Virus record (IMG/VR): IMGVR_UViG_3300042896_000947
Coordinates: 1 to 46,158 of that record
Direction: 5' to 3' (one strand)
DNA from: a virus
Lineage: Duplodnaviria; Heunggongvirae; Uroviricota; Caudoviricetes
DNA length: 46,158 nucleotides
Shown here: positions 13,211 to 36,453 of the stretch, piece after piece
How positions within the stretch are numbered: position 1 is the first letter of the stretch
Layout of the letters: each line of letters opens with the position of its first letter
Position numbers and translations under genes: made by a program
Notes under the pieces: model-generated
Databases searched by the model: none
The model's input: only the letters and a program-made list of their open reading frames with translations
Told to the model about the DNA's origin: nothing

Positions 13211-13256
13211 CAATAGCGGTGGACAGATTGGCAGGCACGGGCGAAACTTTGCCGCT

Positions 13257-14732: not shown

Positions 14733-14753
14733 GATTGTAGGGGCGGCCAGGCT

Positions 14754-15095: not shown

Positions 15096-15107
15096 GGTTC
15101 CTTATGC

Positions 15108-15121
15108 GGTCAGTGGTGACT
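15108..15121. promoter_or_regulatory. Operator GGTCA-GTGG-TGACT, 5 nt downstream of minus-strand TATAAT (15127-15132)
   Basis: Sequence read directly. Confidence 0.72.
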
Positions 15122-15133
15122 GATTTATTATAG

Positions 15134-15316
15134 TCACGCAGAAGCGGACGCCGGGACGGGCTGGGTGGCCAGCTGCGCCGTGGCGTTGATCACGAAGTCC
15201 AGCACGGTGAAGAGCTGAACCTGCTGGCCCTTGGCGTCGAGGACGCGAATGGTGCCGCCTTGCGCCTGGTGGCGCCACGGGGCGGGGTGAATGGCCATGA
15301 TTTCGGGGAGAGTCAT
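15134..15316 (-). CDS. Small hypothetical protein (60 aa)
   Basis: RBS AGGAA; GC3-rich codons. Confidence 0.62.
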   Translation of the reverse strand: MTLPEIMAIHPAPWRHQAQGGTIRVLDAKGQQVQLFTVLDFVINATAQLATQPVPASASA

Positions 15317-15380
15317 CGGGTTGGGTTCCTGGTGGTGGGTTTTGACGGCGAAATTTTCACCTTAGATAATGGCAGTTATC

Positions 15381-15503
15381 TTAGGGCGGTGTCTTGCCTA
15401 AGCAGCGATACAGGCCATGCACGATCAGGGACAGGCCGTACACAGCCACCGCACCGAACAGCGCGCCCACGATGGTCAGGAACAGCCGCCAGTCGTCCGT
15501 CAT
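15381..15503 (-). CDS. Small membrane protein (40 aa)
   Basis: Manual translation MTDDWRLFLTIVGALFGAVAVYGLSLIVHGLYRCLGKTPP; ATGA overlap with the upstream stop; one hydrophobic helix. Confidence 0.5.
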   Translation of the reverse strand: MTDDWRLFLTIVGALFGAVAVYGLSLIVHGLYRCLGKTPP

Positions 15504-16279
15504 GACGGCTGCACCGCCTGGGCGATGGCTGCGGCGTGAATTTCTTCCAACACTGAGGCATAGATCAAGGGTTGCCCCTCAAGCACTGAGGTTTCACCGT
15601 AGCGTTCGTAGCTTGCCCAGGCGTCATTGATGACTTGGCGCAGAGCGGCAATCTCAGCTTGTTGCGCATCTTTGACGGACAAGCTCGGTTGCGCCTCAGA
15701 TTCAGCTTGTTTTGATGAACAAGGTTGCACCACCTGGGACGTTGCTGCGTCGATGGCCGCGTCAAGTTCTGATTCAATCAATGTCACGTCCGCATCCTCG
15801 GTGTGAGGTAGGCGCTCCTGGATGACGCAAATCTCACGCTGTCCCGGTAGAACCTCACTGTCGTCACTGCGCAGCCAGCGATACCGCTCGGCATCCTTGC
15901 GCAGCGCCGCAATCTCGGCACCTTTAGATGCCACACCGCGCTTGTAGTGCTGATGGAACTCATGCTCCATCGTGTCAGTAGGGATGCTGATCTTCACGCC
16001 ACGGGCAAATGAGGCAAGCTGCTCTTTCAGCGCCGCAATCTCGGCATCCTTGGCGTTCACCAATGCCGTCACTGCATCGAGAAAAATTGGCACGATCAGG
16101 TGCGCCTCGTCGCAAAAGCTCGCGTCGCAGGCGTGGTGGAACTCTGCAATGTGGTAGCGCTCGTCCGTGACCGTGTGGTGGCTGGTCCTTCCCCGCCGCC
16201 ACTTGCCCGGCGTGCTTGCCTTGTGGGCATCGCGCAGCAGGTGGGCCAGCTCTGCCACGGTTAAGTCTTTTTCAGTCAT
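15500..16279 (-). CDS. Ead/Ea22-like mosaic accessory protein
   Basis: ASTPGKW N-terminal motif, three AEIAALR/K segments and KDAERYRWLR; start moved to 16279 (RBS AAGGA). Confidence 0.65.
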   Translation of the reverse strand: MTEKDLTVAELAHLLRDAHKASTPGKWRRGRTSHHTVTDERYHIAEFHHACDASFCDEAHLIVPIFLDAVTALVNAKDAEIAALKEQLASFARGVKISIPTDTMEHEFHQHYKRGVASKGAEIAALRKDAERYRWLRSDDSEVLPGQREICVIQERLPHTEDADVTLIESELDAAIDAATSQVVQPCSSKQAESEAQPSLSVKDAQQAEIAALRQVINDAWASYERYGETSVLEGQPLIYASVLEEIHAAAIAQAVQPS

Positions 16280-16326
16280 GTCAGTCCTTTGTTGTTTGCT
16301 ATGCTTTTTTAACCGATAAATCGCCC

Positions 16327-16563
16327 TTATGCGGGGTAATCCGGCGCGGCAGTCAGCATGGCGCGGAAGTCTTTGCACAGGTAGCTCCTGATGCGTTCAA
16401 TGATTCCCCCGGAGTGGCTGCTACACCAGTCCTCGTAGTTGGTGTATTCCGGCGTGGCTTGCTGTGAAAGGCACCCGGCCTGAAGCATGGCTTCGGTCGG
16501 CTCAATCGGCACCAGCTTCCACTTTGTCCAGTCAATCGACGTTGTTGGGTTTTGCGTATTCAC
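16327..16563 (-). CDS. Small phage protein with WKLVPIEPTEAM motif, probably the detached C-terminus of the upstream gene
   Basis: GTG start at 16563 with RBS AAGGA inside the end of the HNH-AP2 gene. Confidence 0.55.
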   Translation of the reverse strand: MNTQNPTTSIDWTKWKLVPIEPTEAMLQAGCLSQQATPEYTNYEDWCSSHSGGIIERIRSYLCKDFRAMLTAAPDYPA

Positions 16564-17368
16564 CGAAGTGTTCCTTTGCTGCCATGTTGTATGCTTTCGC
16601 TGCGTCCAGTTCTGCGCCATGCCGGCCCAGATACTTCCTCACCCCATTTACCCTGATATACGCACGCCAAAGGCCGCTTTCACTGTCAAAGCTGACGCCT
16701 TTAAAAAGAGAGGAGCCGCCGTGGTGCTTTTGATTGAATGCGTTTTGCTGAGGCGTAGCAATGCGCAGGTTCCGCCTCCGGTTATCAAGACCATTTCCAT
16801 CAATGTGGTCAACAACCATGCCGATTTCTGGTCGCATGACCAGTCCGTGCATAGTGACCCTGCTTCTGTTCTCGGTATCGTGCGTGCTCCATGCCTGCGC
16901 ATAAATACAGCCGCTTTTATTTCTAGACGTTAAGCACCAGTTGTAAGCTTTTACAGTCTCCCAGTCCGCCCAGTCGCAGATGGCAAAGCTCCCATTCCCA
17001 ACGTAGACTTCCGCGTGAGGCGGGTAGCCATCGGGCACTACCGCAGGCTGGGGCGCTGCGTAGAGTAAAAACCTCTCCACTACTTGACTCAGTGGCAAGT
17101 CGTTGGCGTCGTCTTCCATGCGCGCCACCATCCTGATAAGCCCGCCGTGGCCGTTCACATCAAACTCCTGCCAGTTGCCGTCCCGCTCCCCTTTTGCAAT
17201 GCGCAGTGCAGGCTCCTGCCCAGCTTGACGCTGCGCCTGGTCAGCGGCAAGATAGTCGTGCATCTGCTGGGCGCTGAAGGCGTCGTACCTGTACTGGTTC
17301 TCGCCCTTGTAGGCAACGCCGAAAGGTGTTGGCAGTGGCGGAAATTCAATCGTTTTCTCGGTGGTCAT
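16532..17368 (-). CDS. Accessory N-terminal module fused in frame to an HNH-AP2 homing endonuclease
   Basis: VVDHIDGNGLDNRRRNLRIATPQQNAFN (HNH) followed by GVSFDSESGLWRAYIRVNGVRKYLG...AAKAYNMAAKEHFGEYA (AP2); visibly lower GC. Confidence 0.85.
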   Translation of the reverse strand: MTTEKTIEFPPLPTPFGVAYKGENQYRYDAFSAQQMHDYLAADQAQRQAGQEPALRIAKGERDGNWQEFDVNGHGGLIRMVARMEDDANDLPLSQVVERFLLYAAPQPAVVPDGYPPHAEVYVGNGSFAICDWADWETVKAYNWCLTSRNKSGCIYAQAWSTHDTENRSRVTMHGLVMRPEIGMVVDHIDGNGLDNRRRNLRIATPQQNAFNQKHHGGSSLFKGVSFDSESGLWRAYIRVNGVRKYLGRHGAELDAAKAYNMAAKEHFGEYAKPNNVD

Positions 17369-17406
17369 CCATTTCTCCTATTTAACGTAATCGGGTTTGG
17401 CGAAGG

Positions 17407-17904
17407 TCAGGCCGTCCAGTTCGATATTTCCTCGTCAACGGCGTCGGACGGGCTTTCGTCGTCGTTGAAGCAGTCGTCTGCACTGTCAGCGGCGCTCAGA
17501 GCTTCGGCCTCAGTCATGCCAGCGCGCTCAACCATGATTGCCGCATAGGCTTTGTTCCATGCTTCGCGGGTCATCTTTGGTGGCTCAACCGGCTGCACCG
17601 CCTGGGCGATGACCTTGCGAAGCGTTTCAATTTCAGCGTCGAAGCGGTCATCAAGCCTTTTGGACTGATACCGCTCCATAGCGCTCAGCGCCTGTTGTCC
17701 AGCCTTGCGCAGCGCCGCAATCTCGGCGTCCCGGTGCGCCAGCTCACCTGCGATGGCGGACTTGCTGTGCAGCCCTTCGACGGTCATGCGGTCCAGGTGG
17801 CGCATGAAGTGCTCGCCCTGGCCTTCGTGGTCGCGTTCGGCATAGAGGTTGTCAGGTCCGGCTGTCTTGGCCGGCCTGAACCTCAGAGAACTGGCATGAC
17901 TCAT
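17407..17904 (-). CDS. Mosaic phage accessory protein
   Basis: RHLDRMTVEGLHSKSAIAGELAHRD segment recurrent in phage hypotheticals; RBS AAGGAG. Confidence 0.68.
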   Translation of the reverse strand: MSHASSLRFRPAKTAGPDNLYAERDHEGQGEHFMRHLDRMTVEGLHSKSAIAGELAHRDAEIAALRKAGQQALSAMERYQSKRLDDRFDAEIETLRKVIAQAVQPVEPPKMTREAWNKAYAAIMVERAGMTEAEALSAADSADDCFNDDESPSDAVDEEISNWTA

Positions 17905-17989
17905 GTTGCAACTCCTTAATTTCTAAAATCCCTTGGGAACCGGGCGCATACAACAATTGTCACGCCCGATGCTCGGCAGCAAGCGCAGG

Positions 17990-19387
17990 TTATGCAGCAT
18001 CCATGGCAGCTTCGCGCTGGTCGCGGATCTGCGTCAGGGTGTCGGCCGACCGCTTTTCAGGGCGGCGCTCCACGTACACCGGCAGGAACAGCGAGTGCAG
18101 GTCGTCGCCTTCGTCGTCGGGGTTGGCGATGTCGTTGGCCTTGACCGTGATGATGGAGTTCAGCCACAGTTCGGGGTTGTCACGGATCGCCTGGCGCAGC
18201 GCGTCGGTCAGGCCCGTGCCCACGCCCGTCTCCAGCTGCTGACACTCGCTGCGGCACTGCAGCGCGCCGATGGTCGCCTCGGTCTTGCTGCCCGGCTTGC
18301 CTGGGATGATGCCCACCACCCGGAGTTCGACCTCGAATGTCAGCTTGAGCTTGACCTGGTCCTTGCTGGTGTTGTCAGCCCACACGGCGTCGGGGTGCTT
18401 GCAGACCACGCCCTCCTTGCGTTTCTTGAGCAGTTCGCGGTAGTAGGCATACGCTTCGGACTTGGTCTTGACAATGCGGGTCGGGATTGAGCGAACGCTG
18501 GTGATGCCTGCGCGCTGGGCAGCAAGGCACTGACGCGCCAGGGCGACAAAGCGGGTCTTGTACGGGGTCAGGTACTTGCCCTTTGGCACGACCGCAGTCA
18601 GCGGGATTTGGTCCCACGCCTCAAACACGACGCGCTGGTTCGCTTCGAGCGCGCCGCCCGACAGGAGTGAGTTCATCACGCCGTTGCTCTCGGCGCGGGC
18701 GAGCAGCTCGCCGTTCTCAAACACCGTGAACTCGCCGTGCGTTTGGGTGCCGGGCGTGAGCGTTCGGCGCATGTCGTCCTCCAGCCCGAGACAACCGGCG
18801 GGAAAGGGCGAGCCGGCGCGGCTGGTGATCCACAGAAAGCCCTTGGCGTCCAGGTTGACGTTCGCGAACATGCCGTCGGCCTTTTCCTGCACGATGATGC
18901 CCACGCTCCAGTCCCACTTGGGCATGTTGGACTTGGCCGGCAGCGAGCAGCGCATGTACGGGAACTCGGCGATGGTGCCCTTGAAGGCGCGGTTGATCGT
19001 GCCTTCGGAAAAGCCCGCCCGCATGTCCTTGTTGATGATGCGGCGAAACACCTCGGCGCTCGGCTCGTCAAGCAAGTTGACCATGTTCTGCACCGTGTCG
19101 CGGGCCGAGTTGCCCGACAGGCTGCGGCTGGCCAGGTCGTCCAGCACCTTCCAGGCCAGCGGTTCTTCCAGCGTGTTGCCCCCGGGCGCAGAGCCGGGCG
19201 TCTTGCCCGGGGCGTTGGAGATGCCGTAGTTGCGAAACGGGTCGTAGGCGTAGGTGACCGCCTTCAGAAACAGCGTCGAGCTGGAGCCGGCCGCCTTGAG
19301 CAGCGCGTCCTTTTCCAGCTTGGAGGCGGTGGCCGCGATGGCGCTGATGGCCTTGAAGACGGAGCGTCCGGTGTTGAGGGTGAGCAT
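17990..19387 (-). CDS. ATP-dependent DNA ligase (phage type)
   Basis: Motif I QEKADG, THGEF, FEAWD, EGVVCK, VKLK and OB-fold VGTG...PVY. Confidence 0.93.
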   Translation of the reverse strand: MLTLNTGRSVFKAISAIAATASKLEKDALLKAAGSSSTLFLKAVTYAYDPFRNYGISNAPGKTPGSAPGGNTLEEPLAWKVLDDLASRSLSGNSARDTVQNMVNLLDEPSAEVFRRIINKDMRAGFSEGTINRAFKGTIAEFPYMRCSLPAKSNMPKWDWSVGIIVQEKADGMFANVNLDAKGFLWITSRAGSPFPAGCLGLEDDMRRTLTPGTQTHGEFTVFENGELLARAESNGVMNSLLSGGALEANQRVVFEAWDQIPLTAVVPKGKYLTPYKTRFVALARQCLAAQRAGITSVRSIPTRIVKTKSEAYAYYRELLKKRKEGVVCKHPDAVWADNTSKDQVKLKLTFEVELRVVGIIPGKPGSKTEATIGALQCRSECQQLETGVGTGLTDALRQAIRDNPELWLNSIITVKANDIANPDDEGDDLHSLFLPVYVERRPEKRSADTLTQIRDQREAAMDAA

Positions 19388-19396
19388 GGGTTTCTT

Positions 19397-20020
19397 TCAG
19401 GGGTTGGATTGACGTTCGGCGTGCAGGCGGCGGGCCATCTGCAGCGGGGATTCGCCGGCAAGTGCCGTCGGGATGGGGGCGCGCGGTGGCGGCGGTGCTG
19501 TGGGCGCGGCAGCAACTGCGGCGGCAGGGGTTACGGCAGGGGTTGCGGCAGCGGCGCTCAAAGCGTCGGCCAGGTCGCCCATGCTGCCCATTGCGTCGAG
19601 CATGGTTTTGGGCTTGACGGCGAGGGCCGGCGGCGCTGCGCTGCGGCGGGCGGCGGGTGCGGAACCGGCGTGGGGCATGGAGGTTGCCGCGCCCTTGGGC
19701 ATGATCCATTCGCGCGCGGCGATGGAGGCGGCGCTCAGCGCCTTGCGGCAGCGAAAGTAGATCGACTTGCCTGCCAGCTCTTCTTCCTTGCGCATGATCA
19801 GCGCGGTGCAGCGGCCTTCGTTGCGCGCTTCCTTGCACACGTTCCAGTCGGGCGGGGTGATGGTCTTGGGGTTGGCCAGCACGTTCTGGCGCCAGATGCA
19901 CGCGGCATAGTTCATGCTCTGGCCCGTGGGGGTGCAGGCCAGCGTGAAGCTGTTGCGCTTGCCGTCGGCCGAGTAGGTCAGCGGCTCCAGCGGGCCGTCG
20001 TTATCAACTAAGTCAGTCAT
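19397..20020 (-). CDS. Hypothetical protein with Cys-containing N-terminal domain and Pro/Ala tail
   Basis: Start moved to 20020 (RBS GGAG); the start codon lies inside an operator box. Confidence 0.68.
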   Translation of the reverse strand: MTDLVDNDGPLEPLTYSADGKRNSFTLACTPTGQSMNYAACIWRQNVLANPKTITPPDWNVCKEARNEGRCTALIMRKEEELAGKSIYFRCRKALSAASIAAREWIMPKGAATSMPHAGSAPAARRSAAPPALAVKPKTMLDAMGSMGDLADALSAAAATPAVTPAAAVAAAPTAPPPPRAPIPTALAGESPLQMARRLHAERQSNP

Positions 20021-25110: not shown

Positions 25111-26013
25111 TCACCGGCGGTGGGTGTGAATAAGGTTATCGATGCCGCTTTTTTTGATGTGGTATCTCACGGTGTTTTTGTGAAGACCCAAAAGCGCCCC
25201 GATCTCCAGAACAGTAAGCATCTTTCCATCAACCTGATAACGCGGCTTGCGGCTGTCGTCATAGGCGATAGGGTTGTCCCGGTATCGACACAGCCAACCC
25301 TTGTAGCCTCTCTTCAAACCCAGTGAGGCAGCGGACATGTGAGCCTGCGAAAGCTCGTTTTCTCTGCAAAACTTGCTCAGGTTTTCAATCTCGATCTCAA
25401 CCCCGGCAGGCGTGGTCACAATGTACCTCTTCACCTGCGCGGCGACGCTTGCTTCTTGCACCTTGGCGCCATTTTCTTTCCATCTTTTAGCAATGGCGGC
25501 CCTCTCAGATTCGCTTTTCTTCTGGCCGGTCATCGCCAGTCTTTTCTTTTGCCTGGACTCTGCCGACATGACCTTTCCTTTCGTCGAAAAGCCATTGCTT
25601 AACAGAAGCTGTCTGCGCTCATCGGGCGTCATGCTTGCGAACTTCGCCTTTATTCGCTCTTTGATCCGTAGCCGCTCTTCTTCGGAGTGCTTGAACCCGA
25701 GTCCGGACCTGGCGGTTCGCAAAATGTTGTAGTAGGGCAGCGTGCTGTCCATGTAGAACTGCTCTCGCTTCGTCAGATTCTTTTTCTCAGGCACGATCTC
25801 AAGAACCTGCACCCAAAAGAAATTCTCGCCGTACTTGTTGAAGGCACGTTGAAGGTGCTTGTTTTCGTGGATGTTTTTTCTGAGTTTTGAGAAGTGGTCT
25901 CTCGTTCGGCACTTCAGATTCACGGCACTGCCGACATAGTGCCGTGAATTCGCGTCGTTGTGGATGGCGTAGACGCCAGAGCCACTTCTGTTTCTGGCGT
26001 CTTCTGGGTTCAT
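25111..26013 (-). CDS. Free-standing GIY-YIG homing endonuclease with NUMOD3-like repeats and C-terminal HTH
   Basis: SGVYAI...HYVGSAVNLKCR...H...HENKHLQRAFNKYG...EQFYMD...YNI; GFKHSEEER and GKVMSAESR repeats; lower GC. Confidence 0.9.
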   Translation of the reverse strand: MNPEDARNRSGSGVYAIHNDANSRHYVGSAVNLKCRTRDHFSKLRKNIHENKHLQRAFNKYGENFFWVQVLEIVPEKKNLTKREQFYMDSTLPYYNILRTARSGLGFKHSEEERLRIKERIKAKFASMTPDERRQLLLSNGFSTKGKVMSAESRQKKRLAMTGQKKSESERAAIAKRWKENGAKVQEASVAAQVKRYIVTTPAGVEIEIENLSKFCRENELSQAHMSAASLGLKRGYKGWLCRYRDNPIAYDDSRKPRYQVDGKMLTVLEIGALLGLHKNTVRYHIKKSGIDNLIHTHRR

Positions 26014-26790: not shown

Positions 26791-27306
26791 TTATTTCGTG
26801 AGGGTTGAGTTGGCGATCAACACGTCCTTGTTTTGCGAGCTGCGGCTGGAGCCGAAGAAGAAGTTGAGCACCGCCCCGAAGCCGGCCGACAGCGAGCCAA
26901 GCAGAATCAGGAGCGCCTGCTGGTCCGATACCTTGAGAATGCCCAGCAGCATGGTCACCAGGATGCCGAAAAAGCCCGAGACGATCAGAATCGCCAGGAT
27001 GTCCGGCGTCCAGCTGCGCACGGTGACCTGCATGTCGCGGGCGCCTTGCGTGTTTGCCACGTCGAGCTTGGCCAGGTCGATCTTGTTGGCTTCCAGGAAG
27101 CGCCGAAAGTCCAGCTCGGCGAGCTTGACGTTGGTGATCTGCTCGGGCGTGAGCGTGCCGGAGTCCAGCAGATCCGTAACGGCCTCGATGGTCTTGTTCT
27201 CGATGCCGAGCTTGTCGGCCATGAATGCCGCCGCAGCGCCGCCCAGTGGGCCGCCCAGCGCGGTGCCGATCAGCGGCGCCATCGTTTTGAGCCAGCCCAG
27301 GTCCAT
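26791..27306 (-). CDS. Probable holin (3-TM, GTA-holin-like)
   Basis: APLIGTALGGPLGG N-terminus, two hydrophobic helices, FFFGSS C-terminal motif; overlaps the endolysin stop (alternative GTG at 27309). Confidence 0.7.
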   Translation of the reverse strand: MDLGWLKTMAPLIGTALGGPLGGAAAAFMADKLGIENKTIEAVTDLLDSGTLTPEQITNVKLAELDFRRFLEANKIDLAKLDVANTQGARDMQVTVRSWTPDILAILIVSGFFGILVTMLLGILKVSDQQALLILLGSLSAGFGAVLNFFFGSSRSSQNKDVLIANSTLTK

Positions 27307-27794
27307 CACAGCCCCCGCGTGTAGGTGGCAGTCGTCTTGCCGTTGGTCGTGGTGAAGTGCGCCGTCAGGACTTCGCCGTCATTGACGCCGTCGGGTAGGC
27401 TCAGGTGGACCCAGTTGCCCTCCTGAATCACCTGGCCAAACTTGATGCTCGACTTGGCGATGGCCTGCACCACCTGTAGTGGCGTGCCAAAACTGCGGCA
27501 AGAGAAGTCGCACGCCTCGCCGCGCATGTGGTTGGAAGTCTTGGAGCCGCCGACAGCCTGGTTCACTGCCGGGTTGCGAAAGCCCGAGCTGATGGAGACG
27601 ACGCGGTCGCCCAGCAGCTTGCGCACCTGCTCCATCAAGGCGGCAAGCCGAAACAGGTTCTGCACTGCCAGCGGGTCGGGGGTGTTGTTGATGCCCTTGC
27701 GCACGGCCATGTCGGAGTCGGTGAACTCGGAGAGGTAGAAATGCGGGCTGAGCTGGATGGAGCCGCTGGTGATTTTTTGAATGACTTTGGCCAT
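27306..27794 (-). CDS. Endolysin, peptidase M15A family
   Basis: LSPHFYLSEF, SSGFRNPAVN...SNHMRGEACDF, WVHLS. Confidence 0.88.
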   Translation of the reverse strand: MAKVIQKITSGSIQLSPHFYLSEFTDSDMAVRKGINNTPDPLAVQNLFRLAALMEQVRKLLGDRVVSISSGFRNPAVNQAVGGSKTSNHMRGEACDFSCRSFGTPLQVVQAIAKSSIKFGQVIQEGNWVHLSLPDGVNDGEVLTAHFTTTNGKTTATYTRGL

Positions 27795-27813
27795 AGTGGG
27801 CTCCTGGTAAAAT

Positions 27814-28230
27814 TCAGCCTGCGCGCGCCACGGCTTGCGTTGCCAATATCACCGCTCCGATCGCACCTGAGCCAAGCACTGCCCACAGGGCACGTACTGT
27901 CCATACAACAGTTTGAAATCGCGCCTTGTTTCGCTCGCTTTCGATGTTGAGGTCTTGAAACACTGATTCGAGACGGCCAACACGTCCGACGGTGGATGCC
28001 GACTCGGCATTGACCAGCTCATAGGCATGTTGGCGCTCGGTGATGGCCTCCATGCGTTCGATGGCTTTGCTTGTTGATTGCGCCATGGTGTGCTGGCGCT
28101 CTTCGATGACGGTAATGCGACTCATGGCTTCTACCATTCGACTCATCAGCGACTTCATGTCTGTGATGTCCTGCTTGAGGGCCGAGAATTCCCGGGCGTT
28201 GACTATCGCTTGACTTGACGGCTCGCTCAT
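27814..28230 (-). CDS. Coiled-coil protein with C-terminal membrane helix, lysis-cassette associated
   Basis: RBS GGAG; ITVIEERQ coiled coil; C-terminal hydrophobic helix. Confidence 0.65.
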   Translation of the reverse strand: MSEPSSQAIVNAREFSALKQDITDMKSLMSRMVEAMSRITVIEERQHTMAQSTSKAIERMEAITERQHAYELVNAESASTVGRVGRLESVFQDLNIESERNKARFQTVVWTVRALWAVLGSGAIGAVILATQAVARAG

Positions 28231-28246
28231 TAATATCTCCATTGTC

Positions 28247-28260
28247 AGTCATTATTGACT
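28247..28260. promoter_or_regulatory. Operator AGTCA-TTAT-TGACT (extends to GTCAGTCA-TTAT-TGACTGAC) upstream of the lysis cassette
   Basis: Sequence read directly. Confidence 0.76.
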
Positions 28261-28314
28261 GACTTTTTGCTAGTGTAATGGACAAGTTGTGTTTTGCGTA
28301 TAAGTTGTTCGGAT

Positions 28315-28425
28315 TCAGGCGCGCCAGGCGCAGGACTCGTTATCAGTGTGCTCGGCAGGCAGCGCATACCCAGCGCCCCATTGCTCAAGGAGCCAAAGCA
28401 GGCACGCTAGGTACTTCCCGATCAC
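28315..28425 (-). CDS. Possible 36-aa ORF or gene remnant
   Basis: GTGA overlap with the heme-oxygenase-like stop; VIGKYLACLLWLLEQWGAGYALPAEHTDNESCAWRA. Confidence 0.25.
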   Translation of the reverse strand: MIGKYLACLLWLLEQWGAGYALPAEHTDNESCAWRA

Positions 28426-28931
28426 TGGGAGTGCCTGGCCGCAATCTCGTCCATGATGGCAAGCAGCGCGGCAAAGCAGTCGCGTGCTTCCTGGGCGATG
28501 TCGGCGCGCTCGCGCACGGGCTTGAGCCAGGCCAGTCCGTCCTTGCGGTCGTCCCACTCCAAGTGGCTGGTGGGGAAGCCCGCCAGTCGCCGGCGCATGA
28601 TCTCGCCGCCCATCAGGTGCGCGCCGGTCAGCACATAGGCCGCGGCCGCCAGCGTAGGCTCGGTGGTCAGCGTGGCGGCGTAGTTGGCAGCGGCGCGCGA
28701 AGGGTGCGCGAACAACCCACCCGCCAGCAAATCGGCGTCCAGGCGCTCGACCCGGCCCAGCGCAGCGGGAAGCGCCGTGTCCACGACTGCGTGCAGCTGG
28801 CGCAGCGCCATCAGCCAGTCAGCGTACCAGGCAGCGGGCGGTGTGCCCGAGGCCATGGCCGCGCCAACCGGATGCGCCTCGCAGGCGTGGTGCAGGTCGC
28901 GCGTGGCGTTCCAAAGCACGCCGGGCGTCAT
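28422..28931 (-). CDS. Heme-oxygenase-like protein (compact, 169 aa)
   Basis: LWNATRDLHHACE aligns to the proximal-His helix (HO-1 LKEATKEVHTQAE); AAAYVLTGAHLMGGEIMRRRL aligns to the distal helix (YxxxGxxxGG). Confidence 0.7.
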   Translation of the reverse strand: MTPGVLWNATRDLHHACEAHPVGAAMASGTPPAAWYADWLMALRQLHAVVDTALPAALGRVERLDADLLAGGLFAHPSRAAANYAATLTTEPTLAAAAYVLTGAHLMGGEIMRRRLAGFPTSHLEWDDRKDGLAWLKPVRERADIAQEARDCFAALLAIMDEIAARHSQ

Positions 28932-29203
28932 GGCAGCACCTCCGCCTCGGGCGTGGGCTCGACAACAGGCTCTGGCAAGGTTTCTGGCTTCGGCTCTGGC
29001 TCTGGTGGCTCAGGGTCCACCCATTTCGGGTCCAGCGCCAATGCGCGCTCCACGGCCAGGTCACGGGTGGTGAAATACTCGGCGCTTTCCTGGCCAGTGG
29101 TGAACTGATTTCCCATGCTCACTTCGACAATTTGAATAGGACCTGGCCCGTACACCAGAATCCAGCAGGCAACTTGCGCCTTAAAGTCGGTTGTCATCGT
29201 CAT
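28928..29203 (-). CDS. Small hypothetical protein with Pro/Glu tail, probably tail-appendage associated
   Basis: ATGA overlaps at both ends. Confidence 0.65.
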   Translation of the reverse strand: MTMTTDFKAQVACWILVYGPGPIQIVEVSMGNQFTTGQESAEYFTTRDLAVERALALDPKWVDPEPPEPEPKPETLPEPVVEPTPEAEVLP

Positions 29204-32200
29204 GCTCCTTGTCCTCCATCCGTGATCGTCCAGTAATTCGGGGCGGCGATTAACACCGCGCGGGCGCTGGCACTGGCGGCGCTGTATTTGGCCGTTCCGG
29301 CGTTCAGCGAGACGCTGGGTTTAACGGTTTGCGCCGCCCAGCCTATAAGGGTTTGGCCATAGTTGGCAGAAGACACCCCGGCTCCATTAAGCATTTGTGC
29401 CGCAGTGGTGACTTTCGACATGCTCCAGGCTCCTAGCGGTTGGTTGAATGCGCTGCAGGATAGAAACATGTAAGACATGTTCACGACATTTGCCGTGTTC
29501 CATGCTTCGATCGGTTGGTTAAACCGGTATGCTCCGTTGAACATGAAAGACATGTCCGTAACATTTGCCGTGTTCCATGAGGCAAGCGGCTTGTTAAACG
29601 CAAGGCAGCCGAAGAACATGCTGTTCATGTTTGTGACCTTCCCGGTATTCCAGGAGTCAAGAGTTTGGTTGTAATTGGATAAGTTGTAGAACATGCTCGA
29701 CATGTTCGTCACGTTTTCTGTGTTCCAAGAGCCAATCGGTTGATTGAATCCTGCACGTTCAAACATGCTGGCCATGTTCGTGACTTTTCCTGTGTTCCAG
29801 GAGCCGATGGGCTGTTGAAACCCGTAGGTGTTCGCGAACATGAACGACATATCTGTGACATTTGCGGTATTCCAGGGGGCTATCGCCTGATTAAATGGCC
29901 CGCAATTTCTGAACGTGTGCGACATATCCGTGACATTTGCTGTGTTCCAGTTTTCAACGCCAGTGGCAGTAAACGAAGATTCGCAATACGCAAACATTCC
30001 GCTTAAATTTTTCACCGTAGAGGGCAGCCCCGAGGGCACGGAAGCTAAGTTAGTCGCCCCGTAAAATGCATACTTCAGCGATGTCAGGCCCAGCCCCGCA
30101 CCAAAAGAAGTGCAGCTCTGGAGGGCATAGTTGGAGGTGTTGAAGTAACCGTAAACAGTGACGCCTGGAGCGGTGTTTGATGATGTGCTGTAGCCCGCCG
30201 TCGGAGTCAAAGACTCGTAGTAGCCAAACTGAGTCAGCGTGCCTGAGATGCGAACAGTTCTTGTAAAGGAAGACGCGGCGAAAGTGTGGCTGACTTTTCC
30301 GGGCGCGGTGTAAGTGTTGGATGTTCCGTCCCCCCAGTAAATTGTTGCATTTACGTTGCCGCCCAAAACGCAGCTAATCGTGTAGTTGGTGAACGGGCTG
30401 GCCCTGTACACCAGCACCATGTCCAGATTTGGCTGAATGAACGAAGTGATCGTCGTCCAGGCCGAATACTGGCCCGTCGTGGTCTTGTAGCGCGCGCGCC
30501 AGTAGTACGTCCAGCCCTGGTTAAGCCCTGCCAGCCCCAGCGTCGCCAGGCTGCTTTGCGTGTTGTTGGTCGCCAGCAGCGGCGTGCCGGTGGTGGTGGC
30601 GGTGGTGTACACCTGCCACTCGGTTTCCTGGTACACAAAGCCCGTGGCGCTGTAGTACGCGCTGATAGACAGCGTTTCAGCTTCTGCGCCGGCTGTGCCC
30701 AACGGCGTCGGCGCGTCAATGCCGCCCGTTTGCGTGAAGCTGGAAAGCGTTGTCCAAGCCGAAACTGCGCCCGACGCGCTCTGGTAGCGCATGCGCCAGT
30801 ACAGGACATAGCCCCGCTTGCCGGCCAGTCCGGTCAGCGTGGTCGTCGTGAGCGAAGTCACCGCCGTGGTCAAGACCTGCGCCGCCAGCGGCGTGCCGGA
30901 TGCCTGGCTCGTGCCGTACACCTCCCACTGAGACTGCGCAAAAGCCTCACCGTAGTTGCTGGTGAACAGCGAGGTCTGCACCGAATCGGTGTAGGCGTCG
31001 GGCAGCGTCACCGCCACCGGGTCTTCAATCAGCTTGGGCTGGGTGTAGGCGCGCAGAGCGCTAAAGCCCGAGAGGTTGCCCAGCGCGTCTTTAAAGCGGG
31101 CGCGCCAGTAAAGCGGCCCGCTTTGCGGCACGACGCCCACGGTGTTCAGGGTCGTGCTGGTGTTGGTTGCTGCGCCAATGGGCACTCCCGTGCCGGCCGC
31201 ATTGGCATAGACCTCCCACAGCGTTTGCGAGTAGGCCAGTCCGTAGCCGCTGAAATAGCCGTTGACTTGCAGCGTGAACGATGCAGATCCAACCGCAGTG
31301 ACGGGCACAGGCGTGTCAATGGCCAGCGGCTGGGTGTATCCGCGCAAGCTGGTCCAGGAAGACAAGTTACCCAGCGTGTCTTTGTAGCGGGCGCGCCAGT
31401 AGTAGGCGCCAGCAGGTGCGAGGCCCTGCGTGCTGATCGTGTTGCCAGTGCTGGTAGCGCTTGACAGGGGCAAACCCAGGCCGGTCTCGTTGTCATAGAC
31501 TTGCCAGAGCGTTTGCGCAAAAGGCGTGCCATAAACGCTCAGGTAACCACCCACCTCCAGCGCTATGGCTGTTACATCAGGCGCGGTGACCTGCACCGGC
31601 ATGGCAATTGCCAAAGGCTGAATATAGCTTTGCAGCGCCGACCAGTCAGACAGGTAGCCTGCGCCGCCCTCAAAGCGGGCGCGCCAGTAGTAGCCGCCGC
31701 CGCGCACCAAAGCGCCAGGCAGGGTAATGGTGCTGACCTCCAGGCTGGTGTTGTCAGCTGTGCTGGCAGGGCTTCCCGTGCCTTCAGCGTTGTCAAAAAT
31801 CTGCCAGTGAGTCTTTGCGTAAGCCACATCGTAGCCGCTAGCGTACGCGGCAACTTGCAGCGTCTGAGTTTCGATGTTCGACGCCGTGAGCGGCAGCGGC
31901 GTGTCGATAATGTTAGGCTGCACGTAGGAGCGCACAGTCGTCCAGTTAGTCAGGTCGTTGAACGCGTCTTGGTAGCGGGCACGCCAGTAGTAAGTGCCGC
32001 CCATTGTCAGGACGGCCTGCAATCCTTTGGTGCTGAGCGCGCTGTTTTCATTGGCAACCGCGAAGAGTGGCGTGCCTTGAGCCTGCGCGTTGTCAAAAAT
32101 CTGCCACTGCGTCTGCTGATAGGCCAGGCCCGCTTGACTGCGGTAGGCTGAAATTTTCAGCGCAATGGCCTGTGCGCCCTCGTCGGTCAGAGGCACCGGA

Positions 32201-32991
32201 TCGTCGATCAGCTTGGGCTGGATATTGGACTGCAGCACCGACCAGGCGGACCAAGTGCCCAGCGTGTCTTTGTAGCGCGCACGCCAGCTGTAAGGAAGAC
32301 CTTCTGGCGTTTGGCGCAGCGTGCTGAGTGTGCTGATCGCATTGGTCAGGGCGATAGGCGCGCCTGTGCCGCTGGCATTGGCGTAAAGCTGCCACTGCGT
32401 TTGCGCCAGCGTGCGGCCAAAAGCGCTGTAGAACGCGCTGACTTCGGCTGATGCGGACTCCTGGCCTGCCGTGATGAGTGACACGGGTGTGTCCACCAGT
32501 TGCGGAAATACCAGCGTCTGTCGGGACGAGAATGCCGACTCCTGGCCGTCCTGGGACAGGTACTTGGCACGCCAGTAGTACGTTTGCCCGTGCGCCGGCC
32601 CGCTTTGCAGGCCCAGCTCGTAGCTGCTTTGCGTCGTGCTCTGGATCAACACGTTTAAAAACGGATTGCTCAAGTCCGCATTCAGGCTGGCGATGAACAG
32701 CACCCCGGTCTGCGTAAAGGCGTAGCCGCCGCTGGCCAGAAAGTTGCTCAGCCGGAGCTGGCGATGGTGGGTCGAGTTCAGCGGCTCCAGCGCAAGGGGT
32801 TTGCGGATCGGCGGAATCTCGCTGATGGTCCAGGACGAGCCGTCAGAAAAGTACATCACGCCGTCGCTGCTGTAGGCAAATGCGCCTTCGTGATCGGCTG
32901 GGTTCAACGCCTCGACGTTGAGCTGGGGCACGGCCGCGCCGATGACGGTGGACTTGCCTGACAGCAGTTTTTGATCGCTCAGGTTGCTCAT
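29200..32991 (-). CDS. Large tail-appendage/adhesin: eight FN3/Ig-like repeats, PKD-like domain, BspA/DUF285 repeats
   Basis: Eight repeats of about 97 aa each containing YxWRAR[YF]; YWGDG motif; seven WNTxxVTxMxxMF-type repeats plus a degenerate eighth and a WTITDGG cap; start moved to 32991 (ATGA overlap). Confidence 0.8.
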   Translation of the reverse strand: MSNLSDQKLLSGKSTVIGAAVPQLNVEALNPADHEGAFAYSSDGVMYFSDGSSWTISEIPPIRKPLALEPLNSTHHRQLRLSNFLASGGYAFTQTGVLFIASLNADLSNPFLNVLIQSTTQSSYELGLQSGPAHGQTYYWRAKYLSQDGQESAFSSRQTLVFPQLVDTPVSLITAGQESASAEVSAFYSAFGRTLAQTQWQLYANASGTGAPIALTNAISTLSTLRQTPEGLPYSWRARYKDTLGTWSAWSVLQSNIQPKLIDDPVPLTDEGAQAIALKISAYRSQAGLAYQQTQWQIFDNAQAQGTPLFAVANENSALSTKGLQAVLTMGGTYYWRARYQDAFNDLTNWTTVRSYVQPNIIDTPLPLTASNIETQTLQVAAYASGYDVAYAKTHWQIFDNAEGTGSPASTADNTSLEVSTITLPGALVRGGGYYWRARFEGGAGYLSDWSALQSYIQPLAIAMPVQVTAPDVTAIALEVGGYLSVYGTPFAQTLWQVYDNETGLGLPLSSATSTGNTISTQGLAPAGAYYWRARYKDTLGNLSSWTSLRGYTQPLAIDTPVPVTAVGSASFTLQVNGYFSGYGLAYSQTLWEVYANAAGTGVPIGAATNTSTTLNTVGVVPQSGPLYWRARFKDALGNLSGFSALRAYTQPKLIEDPVAVTLPDAYTDSVQTSLFTSNYGEAFAQSQWEVYGTSQASGTPLAAQVLTTAVTSLTTTTLTGLAGKRGYVLYWRMRYQSASGAVSAWTTLSSFTQTGGIDAPTPLGTAGAEAETLSISAYYSATGFVYQETEWQVYTTATTTGTPLLATNNTQSSLATLGLAGLNQGWTYYWRARYKTTTGQYSAWTTITSFIQPNLDMVLVYRASPFTNYTISCVLGGNVNATIYWGDGTSNTYTAPGKVSHTFAASSFTRTVRISGTLTQFGYYESLTPTAGYSTSSNTAPGVTVYGYFNTSNYALQSCTSFGAGLGLTSLKYAFYGATNLASVPSGLPSTVKNLSGMFAYCESSFTATGVENWNTANVTDMSHTFRNCGPFNQAIAPWNTANVTDMSFMFANTYGFQQPIGSWNTGKVTNMASMFERAGFNQPIGSWNTENVTNMSSMFYNLSNYNQTLDSWNTGKVTNMNSMFFGCLAFNKPLASWNTANVTDMSFMFNGAYRFNQPIEAWNTANVVNMSYMFLSCSAFNQPLGAWSMSKVTTAAQMLNGAGVSSANYGQTLIGWAAQTVKPSVSLNAGTAKYSAASASARAVLIAAPNYWTITDGGQGA

Positions 32992-33482
32992 GCTGTGACT
33001 CCGATGTGCTCTGCCGATGGTTTTTCTTCGCCGCTGGCCCATACGTCCAGGCTGTTGGGGGTCTGCGCACACACCTGCAGGCGGTCGCCGCTGCTGCTGC
33101 TGTTGTCCAGCGACAAGCGTTTAAGCAGACTGCGGCCCTGAATAGGAATCAGTGCGGTGTCTCCGGCCGGTATGTTCATGCGACCCGGACAGGAGATGGC
33201 AATCTCATTGCCCATGCTGTCTTTCTCTTCCAGCAGCAGTTGGGTTTCAATCCAGCAGGCTGATGCGCTCTTGTTGCGGGCGTAGATAGGCGTCATGAAA
33301 AAGACCTCGCCGGGGCGCACCGCGCGGTTGTCGTCCGTGTCCCGGTTGGGGAAAACGCGGCTGGCGTCAGGCACTGAAAAATCAGGCGCTTCGGCCAGCG
33401 TGACCCATTCGGTGCCGACATTAGCCCGCGTGTAGTTCTTGGTGCGCCCGGTGGACGGTGTTTTGCAGTAGATGCGGGTCAT
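32988..33482 (-). CDS. Hypothetical beta-rich protein, partner of the upstream spike
   Basis: TAATG and ATGA overlaps with its neighbours. Confidence 0.68.
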   Translation of the reverse strand: MTRIYCKTPSTGRTKNYTRANVGTEWVTLAEAPDFSVPDASRVFPNRDTDDNRAVRPGEVFFMTPIYARNKSASACWIETQLLLEEKDSMGNEIAISCPGRMNIPAGDTALIPIQGRSLLKRLSLDNSSSSGDRLQVCAQTPNSLDVWASGEEKPSAEHIGVTA

Positions 33483-35707
33483 TAAAAGCTCCTGGAAATG
33501 GCGGCGCGAATGGCTAGTCGGCGGACAGCCTGGTCGAAGGGAGGCCCACCCAACTCGCCGGTGTCGGCATTGATCTGCAGGCCGCCGACAAACAAGGCAT
33601 TGCCTTGGTCGTCCTGGCCCGAGGCGATGACCACGCCATCGTCCGCCTCGATGATCGAATCCTGAATCGTGGCGCGGTTGAGGGCGGGCGGCAGCTTAGT
33701 CAGTGCCACCCCTGCCATGACGGCGGTCCAGGTGTGGCCGATGGCGGTGATGCGGCTGGGGTCTTTGCGGATAAAGTCGGCAGGGCTGCTGACGGTGCTG
33801 CTCAGGGCGGCAAACAAAGCGGAGACCAGCGTCTTGCTGGCCGCACTCATGCCAGGCAGCGCATTCACGGCGTCGCGCAGCTTGGTAAAGCCGAACAGGA
33901 AGGCAGGCAGCGTAGAGGCGGCAAACACCGGCTGGCCGATGGTGTTGAACAGACCCTTGGCAAAGTCAAGCATCGGCTGCTCGTTGCCCGATGTCAGTGT
34001 CCAGCTCAGGCAGCGCAGCAGCAGGGTGGCGTCAGAGCGGCTTTGCTCCCCGCGCAGCGTGGTCCAGCCGGCTGTGTAGCCGCCATCGACCAATGCGGTC
34101 CACATGTTGTTAACGATGGTTGCGCTGGACGCCTGCACCAGTGCGGACTCTAATGAGAAGGCGCGAAGCGCGACGCTTGAGGCAGCCGGCGTGATGACGC
34201 TGCGGCTCCCGCTGGCGTGCAGGGAGTAGTCGCCAAACTGCGTGGAGCAGCTCGACAAGATGACCTGGCCACCGGACAGCGCCATGAAGTGCTTGTGCGC
34301 CCACATGGACACGGCGTTCACTGCATTGATGAGCGCGCCGTTCTTGGCGCAGTAGCCGATGCCGTTGGGGGTCACGGGGGTGGCACCCCACGTCATGATG
34401 TTGGGAAATATCGAATACTGGCTGCATACCATGCCGTCGGCCAGCACCACGCCGCCGCCGCGCGGCACCAAGGGGTTGCTGTTGGCGCGATCCAGCGGAG
34501 GCGCGACCATGCCCCAGGTCGGAATTGAGCGCACGGCAATCTTGTGGGCATACGGCACGCGGGTGATGACGGCGTTGGGGCGAAAGCTGACAGCAAAGCC
34601 TTCGCTCGGGTTGTCCAGGTCGTCAATGCGCCAGCCCTCGAACATGATGCCCTCGATGAAGCAGCCGCTGCCCATGCGAAAGACGTTGCGCTCTTCAAAG
34701 CCGGCGTTGGGCCGCAGAAAGACGGTGCGGTGCGCCGCCTTGATGACGCAGCCATCCGGCATGTCCAGATGGCCATTGGTATAGACCGGGCTTTGAGGCG
34801 CCCATTCGATCAGGGTCGGCACGCCCGCCAGAGTGGCCAGCTCCAGCGCGCGCTCAATGGTGAGCAAGGCGTTTTTCCAGGAGCCGCCATTGCGCGCGTT
34901 GTTGCCGTTAGCCTTGACGTACAGCGTGTTGGCGACGGTGTACTCGATGCCGGCCACGCTGGGGTAGCGCTGGATTTCGACAGCAGAATGCACCGCGCCC
35001 GCTTGGTCGTGGCGATACAAAATCAGGTATTCGTTGTTGTCGGCAGATGGGACGCTGAAGTAGCGCGTTGCCTCCGTGGCTGCCAGGCCGACAGCCGTGG
35101 TCGGATAAACGCCGGCGCTCAACTGGGCGGCATCGCGCGCAGCCTCGGCCGCCGTCTTGGCGTTCAGCGCAACGCCGGAAGCGGCCTCGGACGCCAGGCG
35201 GCTCAGCTGGGAGGCTTCGGCGCTGGCGCCGGACAGGGCAGCTTGCTGAGTGGCAATAATGCGGCTGACCGCTGTCGCTTCGCTGTCCAGTCCTGTTTGG
35301 ATTTTGTCCGCTTCCGTACCCAGCTTGTCGGCGGCTGCGGATTTTGCAGAATCGTCTGACAAAACAGCAAAATCAAAAGCGTCGGTGGCAGAGCTGGCAG
35401 CAGCTTCGGCAGACAAGGCGGCGGCGATCTGACTGGCAGAGGCAGCGTCGGCTGACAGACCGGCCGCATGGTTGCTGCTCGCCGCTTCATCGGCGAAGGT
35501 GCCTGCCTCTTCAGCGCTGAGCGCAGCAGCGTCGCGACTGTCGTTGACTACGGCGCTCAACGCGCTGGTGATCGCACCCAGAGTGACACCGGCGCCAGTG
35601 CCTTGCATGCTGGTCTTGACCGCCCTAACAGTCTCGATGAGTTCAGTTGCAGTGCCGTCAAGGCTTTCAACTTTGGCAATAAGATCATCAAGCGTGGCTG
35701 TAGGCAT
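33482..35707 (-). CDS. Tail fibre/spike: Ala-rich coiled coil, adaptor, probable beta-helix
   Basis: AAASA repeats; YFSVPS...ILYRH...RYPS adaptor; LYVKANGNNARNGGSWKNALLTIERA beta-helix cap. Confidence 0.72.
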   Translation of the reverse strand: MPTATLDDLIAKVESLDGTATELIETVRAVKTSMQGTGAGVTLGAITSALSAVVNDSRDAAALSAEEAGTFADEAASSNHAAGLSADAASASQIAAALSAEAAASSATDAFDFAVLSDDSAKSAAADKLGTEADKIQTGLDSEATAVSRIIATQQAALSGASAEASQLSRLASEAASGVALNAKTAAEAARDAAQLSAGVYPTTAVGLAATEATRYFSVPSADNNEYLILYRHDQAGAVHSAVEIQRYPSVAGIEYTVANTLYVKANGNNARNGGSWKNALLTIERALELATLAGVPTLIEWAPQSPVYTNGHLDMPDGCVIKAAHRTVFLRPNAGFEERNVFRMGSGCFIEGIMFEGWRIDDLDNPSEGFAVSFRPNAVITRVPYAHKIAVRSIPTWGMVAPPLDRANSNPLVPRGGGVVLADGMVCSQYSIFPNIMTWGATPVTPNGIGYCAKNGALINAVNAVSMWAHKHFMALSGGQVILSSCSTQFGDYSLHASGSRSVITPAASSVALRAFSLESALVQASSATIVNNMWTALVDGGYTAGWTTLRGEQSRSDATLLLRCLSWTLTSGNEQPMLDFAKGLFNTIGQPVFAASTLPAFLFGFTKLRDAVNALPGMSAASKTLVSALFAALSSTVSSPADFIRKDPSRITAIGHTWTAVMAGVALTKLPPALNRATIQDSIIEADDGVVIASGQDDQGNALFVGGLQINADTGELGGPPFDQAVRRLAIRAAISRSF

Positions 35708-35720
35708 AGTAATTCCGGTA

Positions 35721-35734
35721 AGTCATGAGTGACT
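35721..35734. promoter_or_regulatory. Operator AGTCA-TGAG-TGACT, 5 nt downstream of minus-strand TATACT (35740-35745; possible -35 TTGTTT at 35763-35768)
   Basis: Sequence read directly; internal promoter for the accessory tail cassette. Confidence 0.75.
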
Positions 35735-35760
35735 TATTCAGTATAGCGGCTTTCAAGAGC

Positions 35761-36453
35761 CTAAACAAGGGGGTCGGTGGCTGCCCAGACGACAGAGGCG
35801 ACTTCTTCGGGCGTTGTTGCCGCCTCACCCTGCCCGCGCAGCACGCTCGCATAAGCGAAAGCTGCCGCCACGGCCTGCACCTTGGCCAGCTCGATGCCCA
35901 CAAAGTCCTGCGCACTCAGCGTGACCTGCGTGTTGTCGGCCAGAGTGAACTCGGCAGAGAATGCCTGGCCTGCCGCCAGCGCGCTCTTGCTGACCGAGAT
36001 GTAGGCGGCCAGGCGGCGCTGGGCGTTGAGGTCGCCGTCGAATACCATCGCGTTGTAGGTAAATGGTCCGAGTTCGGCGGCGTTGCGCGCCTGCTTGACT
36101 TCAAGCCATTTGGCGTCCTTGAGGTCTTGCAGGGTGCGCGGATCGACCCAGGTCCGGGCGTTCATGTCAAACAGGTGGTGCGGGCTGGGCCGAAAAGGCG
36201 GTAGCCCGGTCCATTCGGGGTGCGCCTCTACCGTTTCCTTGGCGTTCGCAGCGTGCTCGGCCGACCACTCCCCGTAACGTACATCAAGCACCGTTGTCAA
36301 GGCTGGTGCCGCGGTGCCTGATGTTTCTTCGGACAACCAGGAGCCAACCGTAATGGAGAAAATGAGGGTTGTTGAATCCAGCGCCATTCCCGTGATGGCG
36401 TGGTAATTCAGTGCCATATCGTTGTGGCGTAGGATGTTATTTCTGATGATCAT
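35761..36453 (-). CDS. DUF4376-like tail fibre assembly/chaperone protein
   Basis: WVDPRTLQDLKDAKWLEVKQARN...FDGDLNAQ...TLADNTQVTLSAQD pattern; follows J. Confidence 0.72.
   Translation of the reverse strand: MIIRNNILRHNDMALNYHAITGMALDSTTLIFSITVGSWLSEETSGTAAPALTTVLDVRYGEWSAEHAANAKETVEAHPEWTGLPPFRPSPHHLFDMNARTWVDPRTLQDLKDAKWLEVKQARNAAELGPFTYNAMVFDGDLNAQRRLAAYISVSKSALAAGQAFSAEFTLADNTQVTLSAQDFVGIELAKVQAVAAAFAYASVLRGQGEAATTPEEVASVVWAATDPLV

Follow-up and report, generated by a model that had tools for sequence, protein, structure and literature searches.

A compact, almost exclusively viral heme-oxygenase clade, probably an accessory heme enzyme at the edge of phage receptor-binding modules

Until now, the heme oxygenases (HOs) of phages have been seen as part of the pigment pathways of cyanophages and pelagiphages, where they are paired with bilin reductases. 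The described pairs are ho1 with pebS or pcyA in cyanophages, and vHemO with PcyX or PcyA, sometimes accompanied by vAlaS, in pelagiphage and metagenomic genomes; relatives of the HO of pelagiphage Mosig are biochemically active (PMC11480375). In Mosig the pair of HO and pcyX genes lies directly before the neck genes, an earlier example of a metabolic HO placed among structural genes. Here we describe a 169-amino-acid (aa) protein of the HO family that is encoded in IMG/VR virus record IMGVR_UViG_3300042896_000947, a member of the Caudoviricetes whose genome of 110,158 bp is 100% complete by CheckV. The record appears to derive from a metagenome of lake water. The stretch that was analysed, hereafter the window, comprises the initial 46 kb (46,158 nucleotides) of this genome, and the HO gene stands there at the end of a chain of five genes that begins with the genes for a spike, a small jelly-roll protein and a large fibre protein. 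Like the 188-aa HO of Mosig, the 169-aa protein is phage-borne, short, stand-alone and encoded beside structural genes. Unlike the bilin-reductase-paired phage HOs, it has neither a ferredoxin-dependent bilin reductase (FDBR) nor AlaS in the same genome, its family is linked to a tail-fibre cassette, and the phages that carry it range from 34 to 69% GC. We think it probable that this HO is an accessory heme enzyme which is expressed late and whose gene travels at the 3' edge of mobile receptor-binding modules, and that it is not a structural or assembly component of the virion. The features of the locus are listed below in the direction of transcription, with the basis of each call in parentheses.

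35721..35734, minus strand: operator palindrome AGTCACTCATGACT, presumed to bound the operon on its 5' side (one of 11 copies in the window, between a promoter-like pair and the spike start codon)
33482..35707, minus strand: spike/fibre protein, 741 aa (phrog_13163, 2e-15; phrog_17885, 8.5e-6)
32988..33482, minus strand: jelly-roll beta-sandwich protein, 164 aa (predicted fold, pLDDT 91)
29200..32991, minus strand: fibre protein, 1263 aa (PF03382 (DUF285), 1.1e-70; PF25788, 5e-11)
28928..29203, minus strand: 91-aa protein with a Pro/Glu-rich tail (open reading frame and ATGA coupling to the HO gene)
28422..28931, minus strand: compact heme-oxygenase-family protein, 169 aa (predicted fold, profile and residue map)
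28247..28279, minus strand: next operator (28247-28260) with an overlapping promoter-like site (28279-28251), the 3' boundary of the cassette (promoter called by scanner)
26791..28242, minus strand: downstream lysis-type cassette of a 142-aa coiled-coil protein, an endolysin and a 172-aa membrane protein (phrog_894, 1.5e-36; phrog_1544)

By its predicted structure, the 169-aa protein is a stand-alone and compact member of the HO superfamily with the canonical fold. Its sequence alone gave no useful match in Pfam or PHROG. Relatives of 165-190 aa with 55-85% identity to it number in the hundreds; of 45 that were tested, 36 touch PF01126 (best 5.8e-6), and the AlphaFold model made from the alignment of these relatives has a pLDDT of 95.8. 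The best 50 Foldseek matches of the model in the PDB are all true HOs, with TM scores of 0.67-0.82, and alignment by VIA-align to HmuO and HO-1 covers 167 of the 169 residues with a Z of 18.8 and a root-mean-square deviation (rmsd) of 2.6 Å; in BFVD, two similarly short "heme oxygenases" from uncultured phages match with a TM score of 0.86. The whole-length, all-helical fold is in this respect like those of HO-1, HmuO, the HO-1 of Synechocystis and the HO of Leptospira (PF01126), with Z of 18.1-18.8 and rmsd of 2.6-2.8 Å. A profile of the close relatives alone missed the HOs of the PDB, but the wider family profile, to which distant members had been added, found human HO-1 over its full length (5.6e-23), HmuO (2e-21) and HemO (8e-13). 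The match to the Mosig HO by hhalign is full-length but weak (Prob 11.8%, E 0.0025). What sets the protein apart from canonical HOs is that it is 40-60 residues shorter, because of two deletions (about residues 70-83 and about 155-178 of HO-1), and only 15-23% identical to them. It nonetheless keeps their proximal His-x3-Glu, the propionate Tyr, the distal Gly-Gly and the equivalent of Phe207. In the residue map H14 corresponds to H25 of HO-1, E18 to E29, H47 to Y58, Y99 to Y134, A104 to G139, H105 to D140, G108 and G109 to G143 and G144, and F153 to F207. Among 129 cluster representatives, His14 is present in 126, Glu18 in 115, Tyr99 in 127, Gly108 in 127 and Phe153 in 121, and the heme hallmarks are near-universal among 249 family members. 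The initial annotation of this DNA had seen in the last gene of the chain a short HO-like protein with the proximal His and a distal Y...G...GG helix, though lacking the usual distal acidic residue, and each of these points is borne out by the predicted structure and the alignments; a predicted fold unlike that of HOs, which it had named as a refutation, was thus not what the model showed. Its further remark that no bilin reductase is visible in the window can be extended to the whole genome of 110,158 bp, in which PF05996 (the FDBR family) gave no match while a control genome did, and which likewise encodes no AlaS.

It is highly improbable, in our estimate, that the protein is instead a non-heme oxidase built on the HO fold, which would modify the neighbouring small protein or the fibre and would use H14, E18, H47, D51, H105 and E110 as metal ligands. 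These six His and carboxylate residues are invariant in the close clade and line the pocket region, a small protein is encoded in translational coupling just upstream, and TenA-type proteins do appear weakly in the wide profile search (E of 1e-3 at best and up to 0.5, all marginal). All of the strong structural and profile matches are, however, true heme-binding HOs, and the fold matches listed include neither the HO-like diiron oxidases (CADD, UndA, SznF, BesC) nor relatives of TenA and PqqC. The Tyr, Gly-Gly and Phe that are specific for heme are universally conserved, and the small upstream protein is not conserved across the loci.

The distal pocket is where the protein departs most clearly from canonical HOs. 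Ala104-His105 replaces the catalytic Gly139-Asp140 of HO-1, His47 replaces Tyr58 and Trp replaces Lys18, so that where the HO superfamily has the distal Asp (D140 of HO-1) this protein has His105. All 120 close relatives have His at that position, where related HOs have His, Asp, Asn, Ser or a gap. In the same 120 relatives His105, His47, His15, Cys17 and Cys152 are all invariant, which they are not across the wider family, and the distal-helix motif of the close clade, to which the protein of the window belongs, reads GAHLMGGE, as against the canonical GDLSGGQ that is kept by distant short members of the family and by the Mosig HO. Engineered forms of HO-1 carry the same residues at these two catalytic positions, and in the PDB it is G139A mutants that the family profile matches best by sequence. 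In rat HO-1 the D140H substitution gives a catalytically dead protein that still binds heme (PMC13629402). The laboratory mutants D140H and G139A lose activity (PMC13629402), whereas the Ala-His of the phage clade is a natural pair, found in 120 of 120 close relatives and joined there by the change of Tyr58 to His.

These substitutions could mean that the protein binds heme without degrading it, with His105, together with His47, ligating or blocking the distal side of the iron, and that it sequesters, buffers, senses or hands over heme late in infection. The alignment of His105 with Asp140 and of Ala104 with Gly139, the use of D140H HO-1 as an inactive heme-binding probe (PMC13629402), the G139A mutants at the head of the profile matches and the restriction of the invariant His and Cys residues to the close clade, which suggests a clade-specific chemistry, are all in keeping with such a role. 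It is set back by the universal retention of the Gly-Gly kink, which is needed for the close contact of O2 and heme, by the variability of the Asp140 position among related HOs (His, Asp, Asn or Ser), and by the joint change of Tyr58 and Asp140 to His, which looks like a rewired pocket and not like a broken one. Enzymes of the HemO/PigA type also function without the distal Asp. One relative with the GAH-type distal helix is moreover encoded 23 nt 3' of a gene for an FNR-type flavoenzyme (L063:9205-10480; FAD_binding_6 and NAD_binding_1, both above the Pfam cut-offs), on a viral contig of 36% GC on which the HO has an apparent frameshift near residue 20. Reductases of the FNR type are the class of electron donor used by bacterial HOs, and one beside such a member makes sense only for a redox enzyme. 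We therefore hold a purely heme-binding role to be rather unlikely, and judge from these sequence comparisons that the 169-aa protein probably does cleave heme.

A HMMER search of 1.8 billion cluster representatives with a profile of the family returned 175 at E ≤ 0.001, nearly all of 160-190 aa; the Atlas clusters are 75-78% viral, and IMG/VR has a homologue in 112 loci. Among 185,579 species genomes only four carry a homologue (two Roseovarius, one Rhodobacteraceae and one Burkholderiaceae), and a tblastn search of 72,556 plasmid records found no HO homologue. This compact HO clade (about 165-190 aa) is almost virus-only. One of the cellular records, Roseovarius sp. TE539 contig35 (1-20483; locus L082), comes from a cultured isolate and has the whole block of spike, 164-aa, fibre and HO genes.

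As to the expression of the gene in the window, the five open reading frames (ORFs) of the cassette are all present on the minus strand, chained by overlaps that can be read directly, as the initial annotation had described. The junction between the 741-aa and 164-aa genes is TAATG, those between the 164-aa and 1263-aa, the 1263-aa and 91-aa, and the 91-aa and HO genes are ATGA, and a Shine-Dalgarno-like GGAG or AGGAG lies a few bases 5' of each. (The 1263-aa ORF is counted here from the ATG at 32991; the mechanical ORF runs on to a GTG at 33072.) The 14-bp palindrome AGTCA-N4-TGACT has 11 copies in the window as compared to 0.01 expected. Its copy at 35721-35734 lies 13 nt ahead of the spike ATG and directly 3' of a promoter-like pair read by eye, TTGTTT at 35768-35763 and TATACT at 35745-35740 with a 17-nt spacer, which escaped the consensus scanner on account of its weak -35; the copy at 28247-28260 precedes the membrane-protein/endolysin unit that follows. 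The two operators that had been proposed as the bounds of the cassette, at 35721 and at 28247, are both there, each with a promoter-like site whose function as a promoter is putative. The coding strand between 28422 and 28260 showed no intrinsic terminator. Their overlapping junctions and flanking operators give the five genes the look of a single late operon under operator control, and we infer that they are expressed as such. Among the 11 perfect palindromes are two within long ORFs, at 8242 in a CobS-like gene and at 39261 in the gene for a 1890-aa central tail fibre.

The linkage of the HO family to tail-fibre genes was surveyed in the 10 kb on either side of 84 HO homologues, with ORFs from a simple picker and clustering by BLASTP; lineages were dereplicated by identity only, and those that were counted have at least 3.5 kb of upstream sequence. 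A gene of the cassette ends within 3 kb upstream of the HO gene in 28 of 40 lineages when clusters are drawn at 95%, in 20 of 30 at 80% and in 16 of 26 at 70%. The 84 loci include 38 with a homologue of the spike, 37 with one of the 164-aa protein and 49 with a protein of the fibre cluster, almost always upstream of the HO gene and on the same strand, and the order that recurs is spike, 164-aa jelly-roll protein, fibre, zero to three more genes, and HO. The link of the HO family to tail genes is real, and is found in about two thirds of the lineages. The initial annotation had called for a count of how often HO homologues neighbour tail-fibre or DUF285 genes. The linkage to tail-fibre genes stands far above chance; one specific to DUF285 has been set aside, as the domain is common to only about 12 of the 84 loci. 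In the literature that was searched we found no report connecting a heme oxygenase with tail fibres, and no explanation for the placement.

The carriers of the HO gene, spread over 34-69% GC, belong to several phage backbones and tail types. The window has a tail of the lambda-J type, the Roseovarius locus L082 is like a gene transfer agent (GTA), other loci have an internal-virion-protein gene 3' of the HO, and still others are multi-fibre genomes. In L082 the block of spike, 164-aa, fibre and HO genes is inserted between baseplate genes of a GTA-like tail operon; a supposed fusion of the HO to a GTA-like tail gene in that locus proved to be two separate frames. The flanking tail genes of L082 encode a tail assembly protein (phrog_778), a 144-aa NlpC/P60-like protein and a 1321-aa tail protein (phrog_4271). 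In the multi-fibre genomes the HO gene lies between two fibre units and is then followed by an LtfC-like assembly gene, and such an LtfC-like fibre-assembly gene stands directly 3' of the HO gene in 13 loci.

For the HO gene of the window the initial annotation suggested a virion-assembly-linked role, in which the HO would free iron for the fibre tips, load heme or a bilin onto the upstream spike and fibre proteins, or act as a chaperone for them. The translational coupling into the fibre operon, the strong reciprocal co-occurrence with the trio of spike, 164-aa and fibre genes on unrelated backbones, and the 13 loci with an LtfC-like gene after the HO would all be expected of such a role. The reverse survey, however, speaks against it. 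This survey was anchored on the closest clade of 164-aa proteins, because the 164-aa protein alone is too narrow an anchor and all of its relatives together are too divergent. It found an HO gene within 10 kb on either side in 11-14 of 30-36 dereplicated closest cassette lineages with enough flanking sequence, so that about 60% of these cassettes do without one; other structural genes then directly follow the trio. Conversely, one well-sampled HO lineage (GC 0.40-0.43) has no fibre gene within 10 kb, and its HO neighbours are small genes and genes for a DNA-binding protein and kinase- and cytidyltransferase-like proteins, a non-structural context. Neither obligate pairing nor co-evolution with the fibre was observed, for while the spike and the 164-aa protein diverge together (Mantel rho 0.84), the HO follows this pair with a rho of only 0.16-0.22. 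The HO is about twice as conserved as the spike/164-aa pair, and far more so than any fibre protein, which is unlike a partner-specific chaperone. The 169-aa protein also matches none of the fibre-assembly families of PHROG and Pfam (Tfa, LtfC and phrog_188 types), true fibre-assembly proteins being found elsewhere in related loci, and a search for longer, fused forms of the HO gave none, which is weak evidence. A reading by eye of the translations of the 741-aa and 1263-aa fibre proteins met a single H-x-H triplet and no iron-binding arrays of this kind, and one relative is paired with an FNR-type flavoenzyme. A part in virion assembly thus appears to us quite unlikely.

The genes that intervene between fibre and HO vary by lineage, which likewise counts against an assembly role. 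Among their products are a fibre-assembly protein, unknowns of 90 and 186 aa, a fibre of the Mtd-like kind, and transferases for methyl, sulfo and glycosyl groups. Genes for a sulfotransferase and for methyltransferases of the FkbM and Methyltransf_24 types stand directly 5' of the HO gene, and that of a GT2/TPR glycosyltransferase is one fibre gene upstream (L015:9344-9985, L062:3677-4357, L065:9472-10011 and L045:60-1124). With such transferase genes beside the HO or the fibre, it appears that small islands of accessory enzymes flank the fibre modules. Tail-fibre modules are known to carry accessory genes at their distal end, among them cor, llp and the O-antigen-modifying gtr genes, and the HO gene resembles these morons in its position at the 3' edge of a receptor-binding block, its variable presence and its co-expression with a late operon; we know of none among them that is a heme enzyme. 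The cor and llp genes are neighbours of receptor-binding genes and switch off the iron transporter FhuA, and by analogy the HO might be a receptor-matched tool of host manipulation. Its breakdown of heme would then alter the iron status (Fur regulon) or the heme-uptake receptors to which the co-inherited fibres bind, so that superinfection would be limited or fewer progeny lost on debris. Such a role would account for the inheritance of the HO with receptor-binding blocks and not with replication or metabolic modules, and it would suit the surface-modifying types (glycosyl-, methyl- and sulfotransferases) among the other direct neighbours. Yet nothing connects these fibres to TonB-dependent transporters, and the product of a late, operator-repressed gene would come too late to remove receptors that are already in the outer membrane. 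We regard host manipulation of this kind as very doubtful.

The high conservation of the HO, its stand-alone form, its optional presence, its position at the 3' edge and its accessory-enzyme neighbours fit a cytoplasmic accessory enzyme, and not a chaperone or structural protein. As such an accessory enzyme the HO would be made late, together with the fibres, and would remain in the cytoplasm, where it would bind host heme and most likely open it to biliverdin, Fe2+ and CO. The reductant would be an FNR-type reductase of the host or, in one lineage, of the phage. The gene would be gained and lost with the horizontally exchanged receptor-binding block, and the useful outcome for the phage could be iron, the removal of free heme, biliverdin, or CO.

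Several points weigh against this account. Heme cleavage is not assured, because D140H inactivates rat HO-1, and the pairing with an FNR-type gene occurs in only one of the 84 loci, on a contig (L063) that contains Ns. The gene calls at the loci are those of a crude ORF picker, and the tblastn search of 50,697 cultured-phage records, Mosig included, gave no homologue at E ≤ 1e-5. The genome encodes no small subunit of a class I ribonucleotide reductase, no 2Fe-2S ferredoxin (Fer2) and no 2-oxoglutarate-Fe oxygenase, and because no obvious iron-demanding enzyme is encoded, a motive of iron supply is unsupported in the genome. Above all, about one third of the cassettes have an HO, as compared to a base rate of about 4e-5 per IMG/VR contig, and the mutual enrichment of HO and cassette is stronger than simple hitch-hiking predicts and persists over 34-69% GC. 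Because the strength of this association is unexplained, we keep in view, as unlikely, that the HO is functionally tied to host recognition, whether its product (Fe2+ or biliverdin) or the heme-loaded protein completes or accompanies the apparatus of spike, 164-aa protein and fibre, or it manipulates a heme- or iron-uptake surface that the fibres target.

Turning to the other proteins of the cassette, the 741-aa spike has an Ala/Ser-rich N-terminus, a central region matching baseplate and tail PHROGs and a C-terminal part that is like tail fibres, and the 1263-aa protein has a series of Ig/FN3-like repeats and, after them, a DUF285 (BspA-type) repeat domain at its C-terminus. Structure matches of the modelled 164-aa protein are led by a virus turret protein (Z 9.2) and include YomS, Ena and TNF-like folds, none of them decisive; in its predicted fold it thus resembles small virion-surface or TNF-like proteins without a decisive match. 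The trio of spike, 164-aa and fibre genes occurs in about 113 IMG/VR loci (L086-L164 among them), on contigs of up to 381 kb, often with a gene for an LtfC-like protein of 113 aa on the 5' side and usually with the fibre-cluster gene coming after the spike/164-aa pair, and we found no description of a virion role for this trio. The 91-aa ORF is kept in wastewater relatives, in which the junction of fibre, 91-aa and HO genes is contiguous and the ORF has a 6-nt in-frame insertion at 28982, in its Pro/Glu-rich tail; a length change of this kind is consistent with a real coding gene of variable length. The contigs of a diverged relative from one sequencing run leave parts of the stretch without cover, 35202-35855 and positions below 28314 among them. 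A look-alike of its N-terminal motif, noted by eye, stands directly 5' of the HO gene in locus L043. The idea that the 91-aa protein is a decayed tail-fibre-assembly gene was dropped, as it has no similarity to the phrog_188-type gene that occupies the same position in L002.

Nearly all of the genes of the window are on the minus strand. PHROG scans point to a siphovirus-type tail, with a tape measure and a lambda-J-like central fibre, and also recognize a lysis block, PhoH, helicase/primase, ligase, a DnaE-type polymerase and CobS/CobT-like genes. In the lysis-type cassette the endolysin gene is at 27306-27794, the 142-aa coiled-coil protein has a membrane segment at its C-terminus and the 172-aa protein is a multi-pass membrane protein; with this cassette as its 3' neighbour, the HO gene lies at the junction of the tail and lysis modules. 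The CobS-like AAA+ gene ("porphyrin biosynthesis", phrog_249, 6e-95) and the CobT/VWA-like gene (phrog_1576, 2.5e-176) are at 7298-10751. ORFs of homing-endonuclease type, at 25111-26013 (300 aa, GIY-YIG/HNH-like) and 16532-17368 (278 aa, HNH), are scattered among the PhoH, lysis and replication genes. By megablast, the reported region had a single 61-bp chance match to cultured phages, and positions 1-20000 of the window a single 92-bp match, in dnaE, to plasmids.

To the phage HOs of the pigment pathways these findings add a separate clade that is compact, almost virus-only, without a reductase partner and with a rewired distal pocket, and that occurs in phages of heterotrophs over a wide range of GC, beside host-recognition genes in about two thirds of the lineages. 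If the protein is an active oxygenase in spite of the His at the Asp140 position, it would be of interest to those who study the mechanism of heme enzymes; and if the HO is indeed tied to host recognition, the receptor-binding modules of phages would have a tetrapyrrole enzyme among the components that recur in them and are transferred with them. The Roseovarius isolate with the whole block could serve as a cultured point of entry for experiments. In the style of the "Ferrojan horse", the idea that phages exploit the iron and heme biology of their hosts gains here a concrete and testable gene family.

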